The position numbers and the translations under genes were made by a program. The notes under the pieces are model-generated. The model was given only the letters and a program-made list of their open reading frames with translations, was not told the origin of the DNA and did no database searches. DNA of 64,000 nucleotides from an uncultured Clostridia bacterium (lineage in GTDB: Bacteria; Bacillota; Clostridia; Christensenellales; UBA3700), in NCBI GenBank assembly GCA_947646415.1, contig CANSGN010000010.1, positions 1,399 through 65,398 on the forward strand, in the 5' to 3' direction. Positions 1,921-12,627 of the stretch are shown here, piece after piece (positions within the stretch are counted from its first letter, which is position 1; the number at the start of each line of letters is the position of its first letter).

Positions 1921-1997
1921 GGACGATTAGCTCAGCTGGATAGAGCGTTGCGCTACGGACGCAAAGGTCAGGGGTTCGAATCCCTTATCGTTCACCA
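1921..1997 (+). tRNA. tRNA-Arg (anticodon ACG), CCA encoded
   Basis: Hand-folded cloverleaf. Acceptor GGACGAT/ATCGTTC. D arm GCTC-AGCTGGATA-GAGC. Anticodon stem TTGCG/CGCAA with loop CTACGGA. T arm AGGGG-TTCGAAT-CCCTT. Discriminator A followed by CCA. Confidence 0.93.
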
Positions 1998-2010: not shown

Positions 2011-2049
2011 CGAACTCTTTATTTAGTAAGGAGTTCGGTTTATTTTTTA
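2011..2049 (+). terminator. Rho-independent terminator after tRNA-Arg
   Basis: Stem CGAACTC (2011-2017) / GAGTTCG (2031-2037), followed by GTTTATTTTTT. Confidence 0.7.
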
Positions 2050-2061
2050 TGAATGATTGTT

Positions 2062-2196
2062 ATGGAGTAAAATCAAGACAGTGGAGAAAAAACGGAAAAA
2101 ACTTATTATGTTAGGTCTGGTTGGATGGTTTTTTCAAATGGAAAATTAAAAAGTAATACATTAATAGCAGGATGGTGGTTAAATGAAGTTGTTTGA
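2062..2196 (+). pseudogene. 5'-truncated remnant of the cassette's larger gene (last ~38 codons only)
   Basis: It translates to SGEKTEKTYYVRSGWMVFSNGKLKSNTLIAGWWLNEVV*, against the C-termini of 2709-3326 and 3833-4450. An in-frame TAA lies just upstream and there is no start codon. A 1-nt length difference occurs at the homology boundary. Confidence 0.85.
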
Positions 2197-2551
2197 TAAG
2201 GTTAAAGTGTTGGTTTCAAAGCCAGAATATGAAAAATGGGAAATTTTTAAAGGAATGGTAGGGACAATTATTGATGCAGAAATACGTTTTAGGGCATTTC
2301 AAGTTATCTTTACTGACCCTACACCAGTAACATCAGAAAATTGGGATTATATTGATTTAAAAGATGATATTTTGTGCTATATTCATGTAAAAGATTTGGA
2401 AGTTGTTGAAGAAAGCGATTGCACAGATGAGTATTTGTTAGAAAATTTACCAAATCAAGATATAAGATGGTTTTGTAAGGTGGAGGATGGTTTTATAATC
2501 AACTTGCTTGGCGAAAAATTGAACAAAATACCTTACGATTATGACAGTTAA
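2183..2551 (+). CDS. Cassette small protein, copy A (immunity/antitoxin-like; DUF4926-like N-terminus), orphan
   Basis: 122-aa ORF. Its ATG lies inside the ...AAATGAAGTTGTTTGA overlap with the remnant upstream. It is a paralog of 3313-3675 and 4437-4799. Confidence 0.8.
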   Translation: MKLFDKVKVLVSKPEYEKWEIFKGMVGTIIDAEIRFRAFQVIFTDPTPVTSENWDYIDLKDDILCYIHVKDLEVVEESDCTDEYLLENLPNQDIRWFCKVEDGFIINLLGEKLNKIPYDYDS

Positions 2552-2708
2552 TTTATCAAGAATTTAATTTGATAATTAATTTTATTTTTAACAAGCTTTA
2601 AAATAACATTTTTTTATACAATAATGCAAAAGAATTTGTCATAAAACCATTTAAAAATAATTTTTATGCCTTACAATATAGTTAAAAAATATAATTGTGA
2701 GGTGGAAA

Positions 2709-3326
2709 ATGTTAGCAGAGTGGACAAGCAAATGGATTAAAGTTTTTGACAAATTAAACGATGTTGTCATTGATGATTTTGATTATGAACATGGTATACA
2801 TGGTCTAATAACAACTAAACATTGTGTAAAATGTATTGCAGCAAATCAGTGTTGGTTTGTAGATGAAAAAAATAAAAAACCTGAACAAATGGAATATAGC
2901 TTTGAAGAGATATTAAAGGATACAAAGAATAAAAGAGGGTTGTACCATTATAATTGTCATTGCAAAGAAATAAACATTCCTACCCCCAAAGAATCTGAAA
3001 TAAAATTAATTATTCCCGAAGGAAAAATTGGATGGTTGTTTAAAGATAAAGAGGGATTGGTAAAAAAAGCGTTGGGTTATGAGCCAAATGATGACTTCTT
3101 AGAATATTTTAAAAAACAGGTTTTGAAAAGTTATTGCCAAGGTAAATATTACATATTAGGCATTGATGAACATGGTGTGGCAATAAGTGTTAAAGTAGAA
3201 ATCAACGGCAGTGGAGAAAAAACGGGGAAAACTTATTATGTTAGGTCAGGCTGGATGGTTTTTTCAAATGGAAAATTAAAAAATAATACACTAATAGCAG
3301 GATGGTGGTTAAATGAAGTTGTTTGA
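2709..3326 (+). CDS. Cassette large protein, copy 1 (MuF-like CxxC...HxNCxC knuckle plus a variable C-terminal putative toxin domain)
   Basis: The ORF track starts at GTG 2697. ATG 2709 is preferred because GAGGTGG sits 4-10 nt upstream. Motifs present: HCVKCIAANQCWF and LYHYNCHC. The stop overlaps the next gene's start by 14 nt. Confidence 0.8.
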   Translation: MLAEWTSKWIKVFDKLNDVVIDDFDYEHGIHGLITTKHCVKCIAANQCWFVDEKNKKPEQMEYSFEEILKDTKNKRGLYHYNCHCKEINIPTPKESEIKLIIPEGKIGWLFKDKEGLVKKALGYEPNDDFLEYFKKQVLKSYCQGKYYILGIDEHGVAISVKVEINGSGEKTGKTYYVRSGWMVFSNGKLKNNTLIAGWWLNEVV

Positions 3327-3675
3327 TAAGGTTAAAGTTTTAGAGTCAAGACAAAGATATAGTGAAAGAGAAATATATAAAGGAATGATTGGCACAATAA
3401 TAGATGCTGAAATTAGAGGAAGGACATTTAATGTGATTTTTACTGACCCGACTCCATTTACCGAGGAAACTATGTATTCAATCAAACCCGATATTATTTG
3501 TGCAATTTACATTAAAGACTTGGAAGTTGTAGAAGAGAGCGATTGCACAGATGATTATTTATTGATAAATTTACCAAAACAAAATCCAAAATGGTTTTGT
3601 AAAGTAGAAGATGGATATATAATCAACTTGCTTGGCGAAAAATTGAATAAGATTCCTTATGATTATGACAGTTAA
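3313..3675 (+). CDS. Cassette small protein, copy B (immunity/antitoxin-like)
   Basis: 120-aa ORF. It is translationally coupled by a 14-nt overlap. The KLFDKVKVL...KGM.GTIIDAEI...VIFTDP...KDLEVVE pattern resembles DUF4926. Confidence 0.8.
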   Translation: MKLFDKVKVLESRQRYSEREIYKGMIGTIIDAEIRGRTFNVIFTDPTPFTEETMYSIKPDIICAIYIKDLEVVEESDCTDDYLLINLPKQNPKWFCKVEDGYIINLLGEKLNKIPYDYDS

Positions 3676-3832
3676 TTTATCAAGAATTTAATTTGATAAT
3701 TAATTTTATTTTTAACAAGCTTTAAAATAACATTTTTTTATACAATAATGCAAAAGAATTTGTCATAAAACCATTTAAAAATAATTTTTATGCCTTACAA
3801 TATAGTTAAAAAATATAATTGTGAGGTGGAAA

Positions 3833-4450
3833 ATGTTAGCAGAGTGGACAAGCAAATGGATTAAAGTTTTTGACAAATTAAACGATGTTGTCATTGATGA
3901 TTTTGATTATGAACATGGTATACATGGTCTAATAACAACTAAACATTGTGTAAAATGTATTGCAGCAAATCAGTGTTGGTTTGTGGATGAAAAAAATAAA
4001 AAACCTGAACGAATGGAATATAGCTTTGAAGAGATATTAAAGGATACAAAGAATAAAAGAGGATTATATCATTATAATTGTCATTGCAAAGAAATAAACA
4101 TTCCTGCTCCCAAAGAATCTGAAATAGAATTAATTATTCCCGAAGGAAAAATTGGATGGTTGTTTAATGATAAAGAGGGATTGGTAAAAAAAGCTTTGGG
4201 TTATGAACCAAACGAAGAATTTTTAGAATATTTTAAAAAACAAGTTTTGAAGAGTTATTGTAAAGGACAATATTATATATTAAATATCAATAAGTATGGT
4301 GTATCCATAAGTATTAAAGTTAAAGTTGAAGGTAGTGGAGAAAAAACGGGGAAAACTTATTATGTTAGGTCAGGCTGGATGGTTTTTTCAAATGGAAAAT
4401 TAAAGAGTAATACATTAATAGCAGGATGGTGGTTAAATGAAGTTGTTTGA
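3833..4450 (+). CDS. Cassette large protein, copy 2
   Basis: The ORF track starts at 3821, with ATG 3833 behind GAGGTGG. The first ~100 aa are nearly identical to copy 1. A divergent patch lies at aa ~148-169. Confidence 0.8.
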   Translation: MLAEWTSKWIKVFDKLNDVVIDDFDYEHGIHGLITTKHCVKCIAANQCWFVDEKNKKPERMEYSFEEILKDTKNKRGLYHYNCHCKEINIPAPKESEIELIIPEGKIGWLFNDKEGLVKKALGYEPNEEFLEYFKKQVLKSYCKGQYYILNINKYGVSISIKVKVEGSGEKTGKTYYVRSGWMVFSNGKLKSNTLIAGWWLNEVV

Positions 4451-4799
4451 CAAAGTTAAAGTTTTAGTTTCAAAGCCAGAATATGAAGAGCAAGAAGTTT
4501 ATAAAGGAATGGTAGGGACAATAATTGATGCAGAAATTAGAGGAAGGTCGTTTCATGTGATTTTTACTGACCCCACACCATTTACTGAAGAAACGATGTA
4601 TTCAATTAAACCAGATATTTTATGCGTTATAGATATAAAAGACTTGGAAGTTGTTGAAGAGAGCGATTGCACAGATGATTATTTATTGATAAATTTACCA
4701 AAACAAAATCCAAAATGGTTTTGTAAAGTAGAAGATGGATATATAATCAACTTGCTTGGCGAAAAATTGAATAAGATTCCTTACGATTACGATAGTTGA
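4437..4799 (+). CDS. Cassette small protein, copy C (immunity/antitoxin-like, mosaic of A and B)
   Basis: 120-aa ORF with a 14-nt overlap with 3833-4450. Confidence 0.8.
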   Translation: MKLFDKVKVLVSKPEYEEQEVYKGMVGTIIDAEIRGRSFHVIFTDPTPFTEETMYSIKPDILCVIDIKDLEVVEESDCTDDYLLINLPKQNPKWFCKVEDGYIINLLGEKLNKIPYDYDS

Positions 4800-4906
4800 T
4801 TTATTAGGAATTTCTATTATCTGAAGTTGTCGCCAAGCAGCCCGTAGGGATATTTGACAGCAACTAATGCTAATTCAAACTATTTGTAAAATTTGAAAAT
4901 CTAATG

Positions 4907-4942
4907 GTGCTATGGTCTTAAATGACTATGGCACTATTTTTT
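4907..4942 (+). terminator. Rho-independent terminator closing the cassette array
   Basis: Stem GTGCTATGGTC (4907-4917) / GACTATGGCAC (4924-4934), followed by TATTTTTT. Confidence 0.75.
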
Positions 4943-5231
4943 ATGTGTTTTAATCTAGATTTTTTATGTGTTAAAAACCAATTTAGCCTAAATTGTGCCA
5001 AAATTTGACATTTGTTTTTTGCTATTGCCAATTTTTGGTAATAGTTTTATAAAATTAGTAATCATTATCACTTTTTACATAAATTTTTCTTTTCATATTA
5101 TAATGCTATATGATTTGAATAATTAAACGTATAATAATAACTCTAAGTTTTTTAAACTAAACAAAAGGTATAAAATAAAGTAAAAAGTAGCAAAAATATG
5201 TGATAAAAATTTTACATAGATTTTTACTTGA

Positions 5232-5290
5232 ACACAACATATTGTGGTCAAATTGCCAAAATCTCAAAAAATGACCACAATATATTGATT
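5232..5290 (+). promoter_or_regulatory. Two NrdR-box-like palindromes upstream of nrdD
   Basis: ACACAACATATTGTGG (5232-5247) and CCACAATATATTGATT (5275-5290), compared with the recalled consensus acaCwAtATaTwGtgt. Their centres are ~43 bp apart. Box 2 abuts the -35. Confidence 0.7.
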
Positions 5291-5297
5291 TTTCCTC

Positions 5298-5326
5298 TTG
5301 ACAACGAATATAATTTGTTGTATACT
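5298..5326 (+). promoter_or_regulatory. Sigma-70/SigA-type promoter of nrdDG
   Basis: TTGACA (5298-5303), a 17-nt spacer, then TATACT (5321-5326). RBS AAGGAG lies before the ATG at 5370. Confidence 0.7.
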
Positions 5327-5369
5327 GAATGAGCAATATCAGTAAACCCAAAGAAGAAGGAGAAATTTT

Positions 5370-7679
5370 ATGATTAAAAGCATTATTAAAAGAGATGGCA
5401 GAAAAGTTCCATTTAATTTGCAAAAAATTGCCGATGCTATTTTTAAAGCAGCAGCATCTGTTGGAGGAAGCGACCATGATACCGCATTAGAGCTTGCAGT
5501 TGAGGCTTGCGAGTATTTGGAAAGCCAAGGCAACACTACCCCAACCGTGGAGGAAATCCAAAACGCAGTTGAAAAGACATTAATTGAAAAGGGACACGCA
5601 CAAACTGCCAAAAACTATATTCTTTACAGAGCAAACCGTACAAGAGCAAGAGAAATGAAAACTTCTCTTATGGAAATCTATAAAGATTTGACTTTTAAAG
5701 ATGCAAAAGATAATGATATAAAAAGAGAGAACGCTAACATTGACGGCGACACTGCAATGGGTACAATGTTAAAGTATGGTAGCGAAGGTGCAAAACAATT
5801 TAACAAATTGTTTGTATTGCGTCCTGAACATGCAAAAGCTCATGAAGAGGGAGACATTCATATTCATGACCTAGACTTTTTGACATTGACTGAAACTTGC
5901 TGTCAAATAGACCTAATCAAATTGTTTAAAGGCGGTTTTTGTACCGGACACGGCTTTTTGAGAGAGCCTAACGACATAGCATCCTACTCCGCACTTGCAG
6001 CAATAGCTATTCAATCCAACCAAAATGACCAACACGGCGGACAAAGTATTCCTAACTTTGAATACGCAATGGCTATCGGTGTAGCAAAATCTTATAAGAA
6101 AATTTACAAGAAAAATCTTATCAAGGCTTTGGATATTTACGAAATCGAAAACGCTGAGGAAGTTGCTAACAATATAACAAATTCTCTTGCAGAAAAGGAT
6201 ATCGTTCCTAAGCTAGAGAAAGACGATTATATGATTGAAGAGGCAAAAGAGCTTGCAAAAATCGGTATTAAAGACGAAAGTATCAAAAAAATTCAAAAGT
6301 TCACAAAGAAATATTCGGAGCAAGAAATTGACCGTGCAACATACCAAGCAATGGAGGCTTTTGTTCACAATTTGAACACAATGCACTCTAGAGCAGGCGC
6401 ACAAATTCCGTTTAGCAGTATCAACTACGGTACAGATACCACCCCTGAAGGCAGACTTGTTATTAAAAACATTATGCTAGCAACAGATGCAGGTTTGGGT
6501 AACGGCGAAACAGCTATCTTCCCTATCCACATATTTAAAGTAAAAGAGGGTATCAACTACAATAAACAAGACCCTAACTACGATTTGTTTAAACTTGCTA
6601 TCAGAGTATCTGCAAAAAGGTTATTCCCTAACTTCTCGTTTATTGATGCTCCATTTAACCTACAATACTACAAAGAGGGCGACTACAGGACTGAAATAGC
6701 TTACATGGGTTGCCGTACAAGGGTTGCAGGTAACGTTTATGACAAGGATAGAGAGATTGTTACTCAAAGAGGTAACTTATCATTCACATCAATCAACTTG
6801 CCTAGACTTGGTATTCTTGCAAAAGGCGATTTAAACAAATTCTATGAAATGCTTGACGAAAAACTTAATTTGGTTTCCGACCAATTAATGGACAGATACA
6901 AAATTCAAGCTAAAAAGAGAGTTAAAAACTATCCGTTCCTAATGGGTCAAGGTGTATGGCTAGACAGCGATAAGCTAGACTACGAAGATGAAATCGGCGA
7001 GATTTTAAAACATGGTACATTGTCTATCGGATTTATCGGTCTTGCAGAGTGCTTGGTAGCACTTACAGGCAAACACCACGGAGAGAGTGAGGAATGTCAA
7101 AAACTAGGTTTGGAAATCATCAAACACATGAGAGATTTTACTGAAAAACTTTGCGAGGAAACTCACTTTAACTACTCTGTTATCGCAACTCCTGCAGAAG
7201 GACTATCCGGCAGATTTGTAAGAATCGATGCTAAAAAGTTCGGTAAAATAAAAGGCATTACAGATAGAGAATATTATACAAACTCTTTCCACGTTCCTGT
7301 TTATTACAATATTGCAGCTTTGGATAAAATCAAAATCGAAGCACCTTATCACGCTTTGACAAACGGCGGACATATCAGCTATATCGAGCTTGACGGCGAC
7401 CCTCTAAAGAACTTGGATGCTTTTGAAGCTTGCGTACGTTGCATGAAAGAGGCCGGTATAGGATATGGCTCAATCAACCACCCAATAGATCGTGACCCTG
7501 TTTGCGGATATAATGGAATAATCGATAATGTTTGTCCTAAATGTGGCAGAAAAGAGGGCGACGGCAAACAAAACTTTGAGAGAATCCGCAGAATTACAGG
7601 ATATTTGGTAGGTACTGTTGATAGATTTAACAATGCAAAACGTGCCGAAGTAAACGACAGAGTAAAACACCATGTGTAA
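5370..7679 (+). CDS. nrdD: Anaerobic ribonucleoside-triphosphate reductase (class III RNR)
   Basis: 769 aa. It has an N-terminal ATP-cone, a C-terminal Zn ribbon (CPKCG) and the glycyl-radical motif RRITGYLVG. Confidence 0.95.
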   Translation: MIKSIIKRDGRKVPFNLQKIADAIFKAAASVGGSDHDTALELAVEACEYLESQGNTTPTVEEIQNAVEKTLIEKGHAQTAKNYILYRANRTRAREMKTSLMEIYKDLTFKDAKDNDIKRENANIDGDTAMGTMLKYGSEGAKQFNKLFVLRPEHAKAHEEGDIHIHDLDFLTLTETCCQIDLIKLFKGGFCTGHGFLREPNDIASYSALAAIAIQSNQNDQHGGQSIPNFEYAMAIGVAKSYKKIYKKNLIKALDIYEIENAEEVANNITNSLAEKDIVPKLEKDDYMIEEAKELAKIGIKDESIKKIQKFTKKYSEQEIDRATYQAMEAFVHNLNTMHSRAGAQIPFSSINYGTDTTPEGRLVIKNIMLATDAGLGNGETAIFPIHIFKVKEGINYNKQDPNYDLFKLAIRVSAKRLFPNFSFIDAPFNLQYYKEGDYRTEIAYMGCRTRVAGNVYDKDREIVTQRGNLSFTSINLPRLGILAKGDLNKFYEMLDEKLNLVSDQLMDRYKIQAKKRVKNYPFLMGQGVWLDSDKLDYEDEIGEILKHGTLSIGFIGLAECLVALTGKHHGESEECQKLGLEIIKHMRDFTEKLCEETHFNYSVIATPAEGLSGRFVRIDAKKFGKIKGITDREYYTNSFHVPVYYNIAALDKIKIEAPYHALTNGGHISYIELDGDPLKNLDAFEACVRCMKEAGIGYGSINHPIDRDPVCGYNGIIDNVCPKCGRKEGDGKQNFERIRRITGYLVGTVDRFNNAKRAEVNDRVKHHV

Positions 7680-8160
7680 AATAAGAATTGCAGGCTTAGT
7701 CAACGACTCTATTGTAGACGGCCCGGGAATGAGACTTACCGTCTTTTGCCAAGGCTGTCCGCATAACTGCAAAGGCTGTCATAACAAACATACCCACGAT
7801 TTTAAAGGCGGATATGATATGGACATTGACGAAATTGTTGAAAAAGCCAAAAAAAATAAAATACTTAGCGGAGTAACTTTTAGCGGTGGCGAGCCAATGT
7901 GCCAACCAAAAGCTTTTTTACAGCTTGCAAAAAAAATAAAAGCCGAAACCGACTTAAACATAATTTGCTACACAGGTTACACACTTGAAGAGCTTGAGCA
8001 AATGAACAATGCAGATATAAATGAACTGCTTGATATTTGTGATTGGTTGATAGACGGCAGATTTTGCGAAGAACTAAAGGACTTGACTCTTCCTTTCCGC
8101 GGAAGTTCCAATCAGCGCATAATAGAGCTTAAAAACAATACTATTGATTGGACAAGATAA
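7672..8160 (+). CDS. nrdG: Anaerobic RNR activating protein (radical SAM)
   Basis: 162 aa. The cluster motif CQGCPHNCKGCHN is present. An 8-nt overlap with nrdD (ATGTGTAA) links the two genes. Confidence 0.9.
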   Translation: MCKIRIAGLVNDSIVDGPGMRLTVFCQGCPHNCKGCHNKHTHDFKGGYDMDIDEIVEKAKKNKILSGVTFSGGEPMCQPKAFLQLAKKIKAETDLNIICYTGYTLEELEQMNNADINELLDICDWLIDGRFCEELKDLTLPFRGSSNQRIIELKNNTIDWTR

Positions 8161-8183
8161 TAAAGCAGTATATTTAATTTAAC

Positions 8184-8217
8184 AAAAAGAGATTTGATAA
8201 TTCAAATCTCTTTTTTA
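8184..8217. terminator. Bidirectional terminator between nrdG (+) and the LRR lipoprotein gene (-)
   Basis: Stem AGAGATTTGA (8188-8197) / TCAAATCTCT (8202-8211), flanked by A5 and T6. Confidence 0.75.
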
Positions 8218-8277
8218 TTGTACAAATTATAATGATTTAAAACATATTCGAATTGCTTGTTTTTAATAGATTAATTA

Positions 8278-10149
8278 TTATATAAGTTCGCCCGATTTGT
8301 TGATTGTACCGTCGGAACACTTTATAACATAATTACCTGTTGAACTATTCCAACCACTACCTTTTTTGATGTTTGCCCAATCTTCCATTGTGCCACTGTA
8401 CTCAATTTCTTCAAGCAACAAACAATTTGCAAACGCACCTACACCAATGCTTTCAATCGTAAACGGAATTACTACTTTTGTCAAAACACTGTTTCCTGCA
8501 AATAGGTTATCCCCTATTTTGGTCATATTATAATTAATACTATTGTATGTTGTATAAGATGGTATGTTTGCAATTTTAGAATCCATTATATTTTCTTGGA
8601 ATATAACCTCGGCAGTTCTATCTTGAGTATTTAGCAAATAAATTGAGACACCCTCATTTTCTAAAATTATTCTGCCATCCGATGTAATATTGTTATTGCC
8701 GTCTCCATCCTCCGTGTATCCCCAAATAACAGGGCGGTTTGAAGAGTTCCAATCATCTTTCCAATCGTTCGGTTTAGCCTGTGCTTCACATTTTATAATT
8801 AATTTCAAGCAATATCTAAAAGCATCACTGCCTATTTTTTCAACTGTGTCAGGAATGATAATTTTACTTATTCTATCACTGCCTTGCAACATAGCTGCTC
8901 CAATAGAAGTAACGGTATCAGGTATTACAAAACTATCCAAAAGATTACATTCCGCAAAAGCACATGCACCTATTTCCTCAACGTCGACATCAATTTCGTA
9001 TTTACCGTTTTCCCTCCAATTTACAGCTGTCAAATTGCTACAAGCATAAAAAGCGTAATTGCCTATTTTTATTGTATTTCTTTGAATTTCTATTTGAGTG
9101 ATAACATCGTTCCTATAAAAAGCATAGCCCATGATGCTAGTAACATTGTATGGTTTACCATCATATTCGACAGCAGGTCGCAACTCGATATTATCGTTTG
9201 TAATAGGTTGTTTAGCTACAATAGCCTCATTACCTTTTATTCCGTATTTTACATATCCTCTGTTAGTATCAATAAAATAAATATATCCGTCATCCGCAAC
9301 ATTGTTATTGTCTGCATCCCACACAATAGGATAGCGACTAAATTGGTCTATCTTCCAATCATAGGTAATCCAACCTGCAGGTTTTTCTTTCGCTTGAGCG
9401 TATATTGTTATGCCGTAGCAGTTTTCAAACACACTTTCTTCTATATTTTTTACGCTTGACGGAATGCTTATTTCCGCCAAAGCCGAACAACCGTAAAATG
9501 CTCTTTCCTTAATTGTCACAACAGTTTTAGGTATATAAACATTTGATAACGCACGTTTGCCATAAAAAGCTTTGTCGCCTATTACGGTTACGGGTTTGCC
9601 GTCATAATACTCGCTGATTACAACTTCCGTAATCATATTTTCGATATCGCTTTCAACCCCGCTGACAGTGTAAGAATATCCGTCAGTGTTTAAGGAATAA
9701 ATAAGTCCCTCCGAGCCTTTCATAAAACCGCAAACAGTACATTTCCCGTTTTCAAATGTGTGATTTTCTTCTTCTTTGGAAATATCGCAAATATCGCTGC
9801 AATCGTACCAATGATTTTTATCGTTATACTTTATTGTATGATTATGCTTATTACCACACAAAGTACATATATTTTCGCTGTTATACGTATGAACAACTTT
9901 ATCCTTTTCATATCCGCAAACAGAACACTCCTGCCAATGATAGTTGTTATCAAAATTCAACTCAAAGCTATGCTCTGCATAGTCATTTTTTTCCTTACAT
10001 TTTTTCTTAGTACAGTCGTGCCAATGATGTGTTTCATTATTTGACCACTCTATATTCCATTCGTGGTTGTGCTTACAAGCAACCAAGCCCGTACACATAA
10101 CACAAAGCAACACGATTATAGCAAAAATTATAATTGATTTTTTTTTCAT
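8278..10149 (-). CDS. Surface lipoprotein: Cys/His-rich triple repeat plus BspA-type leucine-rich repeats (LRR_5-like)
   Basis: 623 aa. Signal peptide with lipobox LVAC. Three HxW..C...C..H modules are followed by repeated (A)F..C..L..I.IP..V..IG..AF units. Confidence 0.8.
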   Translation of the reverse strand: MKKKSIIIFAIIVLLCVMCTGLVACKHNHEWNIEWSNNETHHWHDCTKKKCKEKNDYAEHSFELNFDNNYHWQECSVCGYEKDKVVHTYNSENICTLCGNKHNHTIKYNDKNHWYDCSDICDISKEEENHTFENGKCTVCGFMKGSEGLIYSLNTDGYSYTVSGVESDIENMITEVVISEYYDGKPVTVIGDKAFYGKRALSNVYIPKTVVTIKERAFYGCSALAEISIPSSVKNIEESVFENCYGITIYAQAKEKPAGWITYDWKIDQFSRYPIVWDADNNNVADDGYIYFIDTNRGYVKYGIKGNEAIVAKQPITNDNIELRPAVEYDGKPYNVTSIMGYAFYRNDVITQIEIQRNTIKIGNYAFYACSNLTAVNWRENGKYEIDVDVEEIGACAFAECNLLDSFVIPDTVTSIGAAMLQGSDRISKIIIPDTVEKIGSDAFRYCLKLIIKCEAQAKPNDWKDDWNSSNRPVIWGYTEDGDGNNNITSDGRIILENEGVSIYLLNTQDRTAEVIFQENIMDSKIANIPSYTTYNSINYNMTKIGDNLFAGNSVLTKVVIPFTIESIGVGAFANCLLLEEIEYSGTMEDWANIKKGSGWNSSTGNYVIKCSDGTINKSGELI

Positions 10150-10244
10150 AGTCCCCTCTAGGTAACATTAATTACATTATAATTTTATCATAATAATTAT
10201 TATAAGTCAATATTTATATAGACTTTAAAGGCATATTATACCAA

Positions 10245-10282
10245 TAAAAAAAGAATACAAACCAAATTATGGAATGTATTCT
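10245..10282 (-). terminator. Rho-independent terminator of the MMPL gene
   Basis: On the minus strand, AGAATACA...TGTATTCT is followed by T7. On the plus strand this is an A-run at 10246-10252 and stems at 10252-10259/10275-10282. Confidence 0.7.
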
Positions 10283-10296
10283 AATATTTAATTATT

Positions 10297-12627
10297 TTAA
10301 GTTTCGTTATCGCTTTCGTTGATGTCCGCAGCTCTATTTTCGAAATCTACTTGCATATTTATATCCGCTTTTTTAATGTCCGAACTGCTGTCATTATCCA
10401 TTATACAGTTTTCTTCCTGCTCTTGCTGCGGGTTGACATTTTGGTCTGCTGCTACCATTGCAAGTTGCTTTTTATCACGCTTATTTTGCAGTTTACTACC
10501 GATTTTCAAACGGATTTTATGAAAAATATCATCGTTTGTCGGCGGTTTTCTTGTAATAGCAATTAAAAGAGCCGGCAAAACAAACAGTATTAATAGCGCG
10601 CTTATTATTGCACCTCTGCCAATAAGCAAAGTAATTTGTCCTATAATAGCATTTGTTGTTATTGCACATACTGCCAAACACAAAACACCCAAAATCGTAG
10701 CCGATGTGAGGATTGACAAAGTACTATCTTTTGTGGCTTTTAAACAAGCTTGTTTAACAGGCATAGTTGCCATATTACGCTTAAATTTAGTTGCCAGCAA
10801 TATCGCATAATCTACCGTTGCACCCATTTGTACACTGCTGATTATGATATATGCCATAAAGTTGACAGGTGCTTGGATAATAAAATTCAACGCCAAATTT
10901 ATAAATATACCGAACTCCACAACACCCATAAGTGCGAGCGAGTATTTTGCACTTCGTATGGACAGCATTAGTATTATAAATATAATGATTGCACTTATTG
11001 CGGAAACCAAAGCAAAGTCCTTTGGAGTTACCACCGACAAGTCATTTACCGCCTGCGCCATCCCCGTAATGTAATATTTGTCGCCGAAATATTTTTTAAG
11101 CGTATCTCTTACATTTTGCAGTAATATACCCTCTTCCGCCGATTCCGACTCTGTTTCTATCATAAGAGTATACAGCACATATCCATTGTTTGCATACGCT
11201 TTTAATTGTGGCAAATTCCATTTAATTGCAAGCGATAATTGCTCTGCCATTTCCTCGGGTGCAAGTGCATAAATGCTACTTACTACGCTTACATTTTCAA
11301 TCTTTTTCAAATCTTCGATAAAATCCAAGTGTACGGCTGCTTTATCGTTAGGAGCACAAATCAAAATACTGTTACCCATAACTTCGACAACCTGTTGAAC
11401 TTCGCTAAGTTCCGACTTGTCCTTATCCATTTTCATATACGAATAAGATATGCTAAGCCCGCAATATATCATTGGCACCAAAGCTATCAATGCGATTGCA
11501 AGTATAGGTTTTCTGCCCTTAATAGCGACTTCCGCACTTTTTTGAAACTTAGGTAAATGTACGGGATGTTCGAGCTTAGCAGTAGTTTTTGTAGTAAACA
11601 ATATCAAACAAGGCTGCAACAACAAAACTGTAAGCATTGACATTAACACACCTTTTGCAAGCACGATACCCAAATCGGCACCTATACCGAACTGCATAAA
11701 CATTAAAGCAATAAAGCCCCCGACCGTAGTTAGTGCAGAGGCACAAACCGTCGATAAAGTTTTTGGTATAGCTCGTTTCATTGCAGTCCTGTCATCAAAA
11801 CACATTTTCCGTTCTTCCTTAAATGCGTGCATTAAGAAAATCGAGTAATCCATTGACAGTGCAAGCTGCAATATTGCAGAAGTAGCAAATGTAATGACCG
11901 ATACATCCCCCAAAATGATATTACTACCCATATTAAGGAAAATACTTATTGCCAAAGTCGTTAGCAAAATAACAGGCTCGAAAAAGCTTGTAGTTGTCAA
12001 AACCAACACCAAAATTGCGATTATACACGCAACAATTAGGAAATACGGCATTTCCTTTACAACCGTTCCAAGCAAGTTGGTGGAAATCTCCGCACTGCCA
12101 CCTATAGCATAATCCAAACCATAGCTTTCAATAATCTTTTTGGTTTGTTTTAAAATACCGCTTGCCTCGTTAGTACTTGATGCAACTGACATTTGCACCA
12201 TAATGGTATATATATCCTCTTTTGGACAAAACAGTTTTTTAACATCCGGGTTGTTTTTAATTTGCTCAACAAGTTCGTTGGCATCCACGCCGCCGATATT
12301 ACCCATACTTGCAAAGCTATCCAAAGTTCCGTACCAAGTTATTCCGTTTGCACGTACTCCTTCAAGCTCTTGCATTTTCTTGGTAATTTCCGTCATTTGC
12401 TCTTCGCTAGCACCTTTTACGGCAACAATGGCATCACTTTCCATATCAAAAGTTTTCTTTAAAAAAGCATATCCCTCGGAAGTTGTCATATCCTCCGGTA
12501 AATAGGATATGATATCGGAATTTATAGGAACAAAAAACAAGCATACAAGGGCAATTATCGTAAGTATCAAAAACACAATGCTTATTGCAAGTTTATGTTT
12601 TATGATAAAATCAGAAAACTTTTCCAT
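10297..12627 (-). CDS. MMPL/RND-superfamily membrane transporter
   Basis: 776 aa. Two blocks of ~6 TM helices are each preceded by a large extracytoplasmic loop, giving an MMPL-like architecture. Confidence 0.75.
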   Translation of the reverse strand: MEKFSDFIIKHKLAISIVFLILTIIALVCLFFVPINSDIISYLPEDMTTSEGYAFLKKTFDMESDAIVAVKGASEEQMTEITKKMQELEGVRANGITWYGTLDSFASMGNIGGVDANELVEQIKNNPDVKKLFCPKEDIYTIMVQMSVASSTNEASGILKQTKKIIESYGLDYAIGGSAEISTNLLGTVVKEMPYFLIVACIIAILVLVLTTTSFFEPVILLTTLAISIFLNMGSNIILGDVSVITFATSAILQLALSMDYSIFLMHAFKEERKMCFDDRTAMKRAIPKTLSTVCASALTTVGGFIALMFMQFGIGADLGIVLAKGVLMSMLTVLLLQPCLILFTTKTTAKLEHPVHLPKFQKSAEVAIKGRKPILAIALIALVPMIYCGLSISYSYMKMDKDKSELSEVQQVVEVMGNSILICAPNDKAAVHLDFIEDLKKIENVSVVSSIYALAPEEMAEQLSLAIKWNLPQLKAYANNGYVLYTLMIETESESAEEGILLQNVRDTLKKYFGDKYYITGMAQAVNDLSVVTPKDFALVSAISAIIIFIILMLSIRSAKYSLALMGVVEFGIFINLALNFIIQAPVNFMAYIIISSVQMGATVDYAILLATKFKRNMATMPVKQACLKATKDSTLSILTSATILGVLCLAVCAITTNAIIGQITLLIGRGAIISALLILFVLPALLIAITRKPPTNDDIFHKIRLKIGSKLQNKRDKKQLAMVAADQNVNPQQEQEENCIMDNDSSSDIKKADINMQVDFENRAADINESDNET

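Follow-up and report, generated by a model that had tools for sequence, protein, structure and literature searches.

A 64-kb window of DNA (the whole stretch that was analysed, 64,000 nucleotides) from an uncultured Clostridia bacterium contains, at positions 2709-3326 of the forward strand, an open reading frame (ORF) of 205 codons whose reading was confirmed from the sequence and which is overlapped at its stop codon by a small partner gene. The N-terminal part of the encoded protein carries a Cys/His motif reminiscent of a phage head protein and its C-terminal part resembles a toxin domain, which raises the question of what such a protein is and why it is encoded in a bacterial chromosome. 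In MuF toxins, the MuF domain is regarded as the handle by which the toxin is positioned in the phage head. The reading favoured here, at a probability of about 0.55, is that the gene encodes the toxin of a polymorphic toxin-immunity cassette that derives from phage and has been reduced to a 'mini-MuF' form.

The ATG at position 2709 lies 5 nt downstream of a Shine-Dalgarno-like sequence, GAGGTGG, and is preferred as the start codon over the alternative GTG at 2697 in the ORF listing, which would extend this first toxin copy upstream, because database homologues also begin M-L-A-E-W. The protein can be divided into an N-terminal mini-MuF domain (residues 1-95; 2709-2993, forward strand), delimited by residue conservation, a chain of hhalign comparisons with their controls and an AlphaFold2 model, and a divergent DUF6883/BECR-Tox3-like toxin domain (residues 96-205; 2994-3326, forward strand), delimited by Pfam, profile searches, alignment and the same model. 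A first-pass annotation, made by eye, had quoted the strings T36-K-H-C-V-K-C-I-A-A-N-Q-C-W-F50 and L78-Y-H-Y-N-C-H-C85 from the first domain and IIPEGKIGWLF...ALGYEP...HGVAISVKV...GEKTGKTYYVRSGWMV...TLIAGWW from the second, and all were found in the protein. The Cys/His motif comprises C39-x2-C42 (nt 2823-2834, forward strand) and H80-x2-C83-H-C85 (nt 2946-2963, forward strand). Across 22 close homologues H38, C39, C42, C48, H80, C83 and H84 are invariant; with divergent relatives added to the alignment the invariant residues are C39, C42, N46, P58, H80 and C83, and in an alignment of 41 sequences C42, H80 and C83 are invariant and C39 nearly so. C85 is replaced by Asp in some members and H84 by R or K, and the conserved core therefore consists of C39, C42, H80 and C83. 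Judged by this conservation across homologues the motif is no chance feature, and the four core residues are compatible with a probable zinc site. In the window clade the two knuckles are separated by an insertion of ∼25 residues.

The relationship of this module to MuF (PF04233) emerges through intermediates. A CxxC...HxxCxC pattern is present in most of the ∼150-230-aa relatives examined, and many of these are without the ∼25-residue insertion, P0071 and P0081 for example reading TCALCVAVNKCIF-x8-P-x-HPNCRC. Three relatives are matched by PF04233 below its gathering threshold of 29.6 bits (P0241, 15.9 bits; P0071, 13.1 bits; P0109, 12.7 bits), and such matches always cover model positions 63/73-111 of 112, residues 30-73 of P0241 corresponding to positions 63-111 (E 0.023). 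Three alignments were compared using hhalign, namely the window clade (A3), the N-termini of the short-linker relatives (A6) and a set of viral MuF ORFs (A5), 29 of 29 sampled members of which were above the PF04233 threshold, with the model ending just past the motif. The window clade matched the short-linker relatives over 67 columns (probability 99.4%, E 5e-21), and these in turn matched the viral set over 36 columns that include both knuckles, CxxC and HPNCxC (probability 97.2%, E 4.7e-11), a score that is inflated for the second knuckle by the choice of the viral ORFs on the pattern PPxHPNCRC. Reversed or column-shuffled templates gave E-values of 0.08-0.9, and when the HPNCRC columns were removed from the template CxxC still aligned in register (E 0.006).

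Two tests are free of the motif-selected set: the curated Pfam model applied to the relatives, as above, and a tblastn search with P0071 against 50,697 phage records. The latter matched 334 records, all weakly (best E 9e-3), and each of the 20 matches listed uses the N-terminal domain and falls in a head-morphogenesis or MuF-like gene. The top match is the extreme C-terminus of gp04 of Clostridium phage phi8074-B1 (43% identity over 40 aa by BLASTP), which is PF04233-positive at residues 137-238 of 242, ends similarly in C-x2-C...HPNCRC and is encoded between the portal and scaffold genes. Both gp04 and SPP1 gp7 differ from the window protein in having a full MuF domain and no toxin, and in SPP1 gp7 R/H stands where the first Cys pair would be; a search seeded with SPP1 gp7 recovered SPP1 gp7 alone. 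In BFVD, a library of viral structures, two of the three top Foldseek matches are named 'Minor capsid protein' (473 and 497 aa), a name that presumably denotes MuF-type proteins.

The MuF C-terminal knuckle, C-x2-C...HPNC[RK]C, can consequently be followed in the same order and register through the intermediates, as the hhalign chain and the partial Pfam matches to the end of the model indicate, and the resemblance first noticed to this part of MuF, with the rest of the domain absent, is borne out. The hhalign matches cover just the last ∼40 columns of the MuF template, residues 1-35 of the window protein are unmatched, and the helical '...IARTE...' part of MuF (approximately model positions 1-60) has no counterpart in it. 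Homology of the N-terminal 95 residues to MuF is supported through intermediates and not by direct comparison, and what this region appears to keep is only the last beta-strand and the Cys/His knuckle segment, approximately the last 40-50 positions, of the domain.

A different origin for the module has to be considered at this point, in which it is a small zinc ribbon or knuckle of a generic kind, aids binding of an RNA substrate and is similar to MuF by convergence. Compared directly with the viral MuF set, the window clade gave a probability of 55% (E 1.2e-4) over 14 columns of the second knuckle only, a result that agrees with such an origin and counts against a MuF-derived handle, as do the failure of any PF04233 match to reach threshold and the lack of any match at E ≤ 1 in the window protein and 21 close homologues. 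The similarity is confined to ∼40 residues, mostly Cys/His, and the predicted template modelling score (pTM) of 0.87 for the AlphaFold2 model suggests a single packed unit of N-terminal module and toxin domain. Convergence is nevertheless judged improbable, given the register of CxxC without the HPNCRC columns, the 97% match via intermediates, the restriction of the listed phage tblastn matches to MuF genes, the homologue that occupies the MuF slot after a portal gene (see below) and an independent link between DUF6883 toxins and MuF in the literature; moreover, MuF origin and a role in RNA binding are not mutually exclusive.

The C-terminal domain was placed using a family profile built from the 22 homologues, which retrieved 350 proteins at E ≤ 0.001 from 1.84 billion representatives. 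Profile positions ∼107-198 recur beyond the ∼200-aa family, forming the extreme C-terminus of proteins that range from 200 to 2022 aa, and in the long proteins Pfam places an above-threshold DUF6883 domain at the same C-terminal position (P0145, 36 bits; P0166, 36.4 bits; P0157, 33.4 bits; and others). The domains found upstream of DUF6883 include RHS repeats (P0157), DUF637/CdiA-like (P0171), Tox-PAAR-like (P0177), PT-TG, PT-HINT and peptidoglycan-binding domains; such an arrangement is the standard signature of the C-terminal domain of polymorphic toxins. In an alignment with bona fide DUF6883 domains the K-F, G-K, L-G-Y, G-x-Y, S-G-W-M, P-x-G and N-T motifs are shared, and conserved residues of the toxin domain include K106, K114, Y147 and T194. 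A hidden Markov model (HMM) of the broad DUF6883 alignment matches the window toxins with an E-value of about 1e-29, which is partly circular in that the alignment contains the sequence of the second window toxin. Homology that is transitive through the profile identifies the C-terminal ∼110 residues as a divergent DUF6883 polymorphic-toxin domain, so that the resemblance to DUF6883 first noticed by eye stands, below the Pfam threshold for the protein itself yet with above-threshold DUF6883 toxins recovered by its family profile.

The AlphaFold2 model of the toxin, obtained with the 41-sequence alignment (mean predicted local distance difference test score, pLDDT, 91.2), shows helices at residues 106-143 followed by four strands, with the invariant T194 in strand 4; in the N-terminal domain pLDDT is about 83-96 after the first 10 residues. 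A first model from 22 sequences, in which the N-terminus was unreliable (pLDDT <50), was replaced by this one. The topology of the toxin domain agrees with the description of the BECR fold as an N-terminal helix and four to five strands, the fourth of which bears a conserved S/T (Iyer et al., 2017, PMC5512222). DUF6883 has been assigned to the BECR-Tox3 ribonucleases, commonly with a DUF4926 gene downstream and frequently fused to Phage_Mu_F (bioRxiv 10.64898/2026.08.28.747851), and the window domain is predicted to be a metal-independent endoribonuclease.

The partner gene (3313-3675, forward strand; 120 aa) overlaps the stop of the first toxin by 14 nt and its product begins MKLFDKVKVL. Pfam DUF4926 (PF16277) scores 12.6-17.2 bits on the three partners in the window, under its gathering threshold of 29.1 bits, and is the sole family that recurs among 41 partners from related loci (16 of the 41 at E ≤ 0.1, best E 1.4e-5), in keeping with the DUF4926 likeness initially noted for the N-terminus. 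By strict thresholds the pair belongs to none of PF04233, PF21814 and PF16277; profile evidence places it as a divergent relative of all three. The DUF4926-like part is confined to the N-terminal ∼75 residues of the partner. It is followed by a tail, the last ∼35-40 residues, with the consensus W[WF]CKVE[DN]GYIxNLxGExKNKIPYDYxS, for copy 2 also given as W[FW]CKVEDGYIxNLLGEKxNKIPYDYDS, in which mean pairwise identity is 65% vs 46% in the rest of the protein. The three tails in the window (residues ∼76-120) are encoded at 2414-2551, 3538-3675 and 4662-4799 on the forward strand. A tail about 74% identical is also present in the partner of P0141, though the P0141 toxin shares only 21% identity with the window toxin; the partners of P0141 have weak or faint precomputed matches to DUF4926. 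A possible ligand of the tail is the conserved knuckle; a factor from host or phage is another possibility. No DNA-binding family was detected by Pfam in the window partners or in the 41-member scan, and the 120-aa partner is likely to be a cognate immunity protein that would neutralise the toxin.

A link to phage is provided by one homologue encoded in a head module, on the IMG/VR contig IMGVR_UViG_3300031555_010284 (L174; cassette region 4656-10477). The gene order is portal (phrog_156, E 1.3e-47), 218-aa homologue, three partner paralogues, a 223-aa ORF and the major head protein (phrog_14242, E 9.5e-56). The portal stop and the start of the homologue overlap by 14 nt, the slot is the one in which SPP1 and phi8074-B1 carry their MuF genes, and no other MuF gene was found in 15 kb of the contig. 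In a prophage of the same lineage (L149, 20-8926) a scaffold-like gene directly follows the portal gene, and decayed cassettes lie several kb downstream of the portal; the cassette is therefore accessory cargo or an insertion, mobile within this one phage lineage. An essential replacement of MuF in the lineage, which was considered as a candidate, is ruled out by the L149 arrangement.

Related loci were sought in one genome per species, and 43 genomic loci were found, all in metagenome-assembled genomes (MAGs) of uncultured Christensenellaceae, Christensenella, Clostridia, Eubacteriales or Lachnospiraceae. These loci, together with many short-linker relatives, mean that the free-standing form of ∼200 aa, which had initially been regarded as unusual, is not a one-off. 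Nearly all of the 43 have an overlapping partner behind the toxin, the exceptions being loci cut at contig ends, and several loci contain decayed toxins or a single toxin with 3-4 partner paralogues. Arrays of several immunity paralogues behind one toxin are typical of polymorphic-toxin systems and unusual for type II toxin-antitoxin systems. Since multiple partner paralogues stand behind single toxins here, in phage as well, toxins that arrive from outside are indicated, and a delivered toxin is favoured over a classical toxin-antitoxin pair.

A contrary proposal is that of an intracellular toxin-antitoxin or abortive-infection module, in which the partner restrains the RNase and the MuF-derived knuckle acts as a sensor or decoy that engages an infecting phage at its portal or head-assembly machinery, releasing the toxin or poisoning capsids. 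The units are free-standing gene pairs with overlapping frames and a ribosome-binding site, they have no secretion or trafficking domain, and nearly all of them lie amid housekeeping genes with no prophage within 8 kb. Moreover, the P0028 and P0031 loci occupy a syntenic chromosomal site in different lineages, beside Amidase_3, SpoIIE and TilS genes, which implies long-term retention. Such a module is a possible explanation, held at well below even odds: it is at variance with the several partner paralogues behind one toxin, usual in immunity to incoming toxins, and with the phage that itself bears a toxin and three partners in its head module, and neither a PADLOC match nor a DNA-binding antitoxin domain in the partner was detected. 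At the syntenic site, which lies between the Amidase_3/SpoIIE/TilS genes and a hydrolase/transketolase block, loci L175 (10001-13057) and L177 (10001-13874) have, besides a toxin with its 3-4 partner paralogues, two ORFs that lack annotation, one of about 217-227 aa and the other of 169-178 aa, and this additional ORF pair might be a second toxin/immunity type. Elsewhere, the P0023 cassette (L178/L179) is flanked by a Pfam-annotated HTH_3 and PNPOx_N pair, with an HNH protein and a large serine recombinase encoded 1-3 kb downstream.

Siting beside tRNA genes is a recurrent feature. In 15 of the 43 loci the cassette is within 500 bp of a tRNA gene, always on the tRNA 3′ side, and ten tRNAs are represented: Arg-ACG, Arg-CCT, Glu-CTC, Val-TAC, Val-GAC, Asn, Thr, Leu-CAG, Leu-CAA and Leu-TAA. 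No integrase was found adjacent to the tRNA-side cassettes, and the pattern suggests tRNA-3′ insertion hotspots or the remnants of integrated elements; any connection between this siting and the predicted tRNase-type activity is pure speculation. The closest genome match to the window (L123), an uncultured Christensenellaceae MAG from mouse gut, has the same tRNA-Arg context.

In the window the cassettes form a tandem array with a period of 1124 bp, made up of a toxin remnant, three partners and two toxins, within an islet of 28.7% GC (window 35.4%). The array begins about 75 bp past the 3′ end of a tRNA-Arg gene (anticodon ACG; 1921-1997, forward strand, by ARAGORN), which is followed immediately by a terminator-like hairpin (2011-2037, forward strand) identified by consensus scan alone; ORFs of 113 and 155 aa lie upstream of the tRNA gene (759-1716). 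The remnant of a third toxin copy, a 41-codon open stretch at 2071-2193 (forward strand) that belongs to repeat family D1, encodes the last ∼36 codons of a DUF6883-like domain (...GEKTEKTYYVRSGWMVFSNGKLKSNTLIAGWWLNEVV), matches positions 167-199 of the family HMM (E 3.5e-14) and has no start codon and no N-terminal part. Partner copy 1 (2183-2551, forward strand; 122 aa, DUF4926 at a sub-threshold E of 0.0043 in Pfam) has been left an orphan by the decay of its toxin. It is followed by a 157-bp AT-rich spacer (2552-2708, forward strand; 16.6% GC) containing the GAGGTGG ribosome-binding site, the toxin described above, and its partner (copy 2), identified as an ORF and by Pfam and its relatives. 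The second unit consists of a spacer (3676-3832, forward strand) identical to the first at 157 of 157 positions, a second 205-aa toxin (3833-4450, forward strand) that is 91% identical to the first, with the differences concentrated in the toxin domain, and aligns identically to the database protein P0001, whose contigs it retrieves, and a 120-aa third partner (4437-4799, forward strand). Each partner overlaps the preceding toxin stop by 14 nt. A terminator-like hairpin found by consensus scan (4903-4938, forward strand) ends the array, and nrdD (5370-7679) and then nrdG lie downstream, identical ORFs in L166 carrying the Pfam ATP-cone and NRDD, and Radical_SAM, domains, respectively. The promoter that had been attributed to the module in the first-pass annotation is not established: each spacer has a promoter-like TTTAAA-16-TACAAT sequence (2650-2677 and 3774-3801), and such matches in the AT-rich stretch (26 observed) are no commoner than in shuffled sequence (22.2 ± 5.8). 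When the sequence downstream of the array was searched for att-like copies of the tRNA 3′ end, only an 11-mer was found, and blastn of the array against plasmids gave nothing.

Differences between the two complete units are unevenly distributed. The knuckle domain (toxin residues 1-95) differs by 4 synonymous and 2 non-synonymous codon changes, the toxin domain (residues 96-205) by 15 and 16, the N-domain of the partner (residues 1-75) by 17 and 13, and the partner tail (residues 76-120) by 3 and 0. Polymorphic toxin cassettes usually show this kind of mosaic, in which the toxin/immunity core varies and its flanks are conserved. The identical spacers and near-identical knuckle regions, vs ∼30 differing codons in each core, point to recent gene conversion or cassette exchange, and the mosaic is compatible with exchange by homologous recombination. 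The number of cassettes also varies between genomes, the close assembly L123 having one toxin vs two in the window and L167 holding at least three cassette units.

The array might also bring to mind silent spare parts of the orphan cdiA-CT/cdiI or rhs-CT kind, fragments of full-length MuF-toxin genes in which the retained end of the MuF region would serve as a handle for recombination and which would become active only after recombining into the muf gene of a prophage. A tandem array with a decayed first toxin, conservation of the knuckle segment and spacer around a variable toxin/immunity core, and copy number that differs among related assemblies are all features that such fragments would share. 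Orphan arrays of contact-dependent inhibition (CDI) or Rhs toxins are indeed similar in their tandem cassettes, short conserved upstream segment, variable toxin tip with immunity gene, decayed copies and orphan immunity genes; they differ in that the units in the window are complete, apparently translatable ORFs with no full-length parent gene upstream. Each toxin copy starts at an ATG that is preceded by a Shine-Dalgarno-like sequence, a length of ∼200 aa and the family-specific N-terminal segment with W9 and D14 are kept over the 43 loci and many relatives, the short form in L174 sits in a head module and is translationally coupled to the portal gene, and a full-length MuF-DUF6883 gene was encountered neither nearby nor in any search. 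Silent spare parts are accordingly regarded as the least probable of the explanations considered here.

Three further described systems are close to the cassette. MuF polymorphic toxins (Jamet et al., 2017, PMC5576092) likewise have a MuF-derived N-terminus, a variable C-terminal toxin and a small (<150 aa) downstream ORF, in the present case the 120-122-aa partner that overlaps the toxin stop, and the L174 homologue likewise follows a portal gene in a phage head module. In contrast to those toxins of several hundred residues, the proteins described here have ∼200 aa and retain just the last ∼40-50 of the 112 Pfam MuF positions, and most copies, including those in the window, are chromosomal, outside a recognisable prophage and often arrayed. 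The toxin family, the toxin-then-partner order and the Phage_Mu_F link are shared with the BECR-Tox3/DUF6883 and DUF4926 systems (bioRxiv 10.64898/2026.08.28.747851), from which the window proteins differ by sub-threshold scores for both domains, replacement of GQR by G-V-x, the extra partner tail and a vestigial MuF. Finally, MuF-PBECR fusions and polyvalent proteins (Iyer et al., 2017, PMC5512222) tether a BECR RNase to virion-associated MuF for delivery with phage DNA; they are larger and encoded among late genes, whereas the form described here is a two-domain mini-protein with an immunity gene and is mostly chromosomal.

Several further results weigh against a phage-derived toxin-immunity cassette. 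PF21814 scores 16.7 bits on the first window toxin (E 0.0088, residues 121-189) and 15.5 bits on the second, short of its 27-bit gathering cut-off, and matches at E ≤ 1 in just 6 of 22 family members. Canonical DUF6883 domains have Y-G-Q-R-I, the Q and R of which rank among the most conserved polar residues of the domain, where residues 156-158 of the window toxins (3174-3182 and 4298-4306) read G-V-A or G-V-S and sister members read G-F-K/R; the active site of the window clade, lacking GQR, may therefore differ or be impaired. Foldseek searches of the Protein Data Bank (PDB) with both AlphaFold2 models yielded no significant match, and none to colicin, RelE or barnase structures, so that the BECR assignment rests on topology and literature; PDB sequence searches with the single toxin sequence and with the profile also gave no match. 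NCBIfam and PADLOC scans of toxin and partner were negative, and the sole PHROG match of the window toxin is weak (E 8.6e-4, residues 23-86) and is to a family of unknown function. Protein homologue searches with the N-terminal and DUF6883 profiles recovered only short or MuF-less proteins and no full-length MuF-DUF6883 fusion, and a DUF6883 domain was present in 0 of 120 viral MuF ORFs. Viral contigs contained no match to the DNA pattern GWM..P.G....NTP and no member of the short-linker clade (A9), and the phage collection yielded no tblastn match to the window toxin, to its partner or to a canonical DUF6883 domain. With regard to context, no MuF, portal or capsid gene is present in the 64-kb window, nor within 8 kb of the cassette in 42 of the 43 genomic loci, no MuF-domain gene was found within 8 kb in any locus, and the neighbours are mostly housekeeping genes; in such chromosomal contexts without phage genes, loading into virions would need a phage encoded elsewhere. 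The portal-adjacent position in a head module that characterises the toxins of Jamet et al. (2017) is absent from the window and from these 42 loci, is present in L174, and even there has to be set beside the portal-scaffold order of L149.

It is proposed, on the favoured interpretation as a delivered mini-MuF toxin, that toxin made in a cell producing a suitable phage would be loaded beside the portal via the knuckle domain and delivered with the DNA. The partners would neutralise cognate toxins and possibly also related toxins from outside, and the conserved flanks, namely the spacer and knuckle-coding region upstream and the immunity-tail-coding region downstream, would let variable cores swap by recombination. 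A bolder version, considered improbable, is that chromosomal mini-MuF toxins are host-encoded 'stowaways', the knuckle being sufficient to dock an RNase at the portal of any compatible assembling phage, with the result that virions kill or arrest a next host without the matching partner, or that the toxin sabotages the phage progeny. If this were true, the system would be a host-controlled, phage-vectored weapon for kin discrimination or against phage, and the ultra-conserved tail of the partner would be a lock on the conserved handle.

The combination of MuF, DUF6883 and DUF4926 has already been described, and current understanding is not overturned. New features are the reduction of MuF to its terminal knuckle in a protein of ∼200 aa, the occurrence of the cassettes mainly in chromosomes, often arrayed and outside prophages, the long insertion between the knuckles, the altered GQR motif and the unexplained conserved tail of the partner. 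To our knowledge, delivery of MuF toxins has so far not been established experimentally. The present comparison suggests that the handle of a MuF toxin is reducible to a Cys/His knuckle of ∼50 residues, which offers a small and concrete target on which portal recruitment of MuF proteins and their cargo can be tested. In uncultured gut Clostridia, the Christensenellaceae and their relatives, MuF-type toxin/immunity modules persist as diversifying chromosomal cassettes, often at the 3′ ends of tRNA genes, and these cassettes make it harder to draw a boundary between polymorphic toxins delivered by phage, immunity islands and toxin-antitoxin modules.

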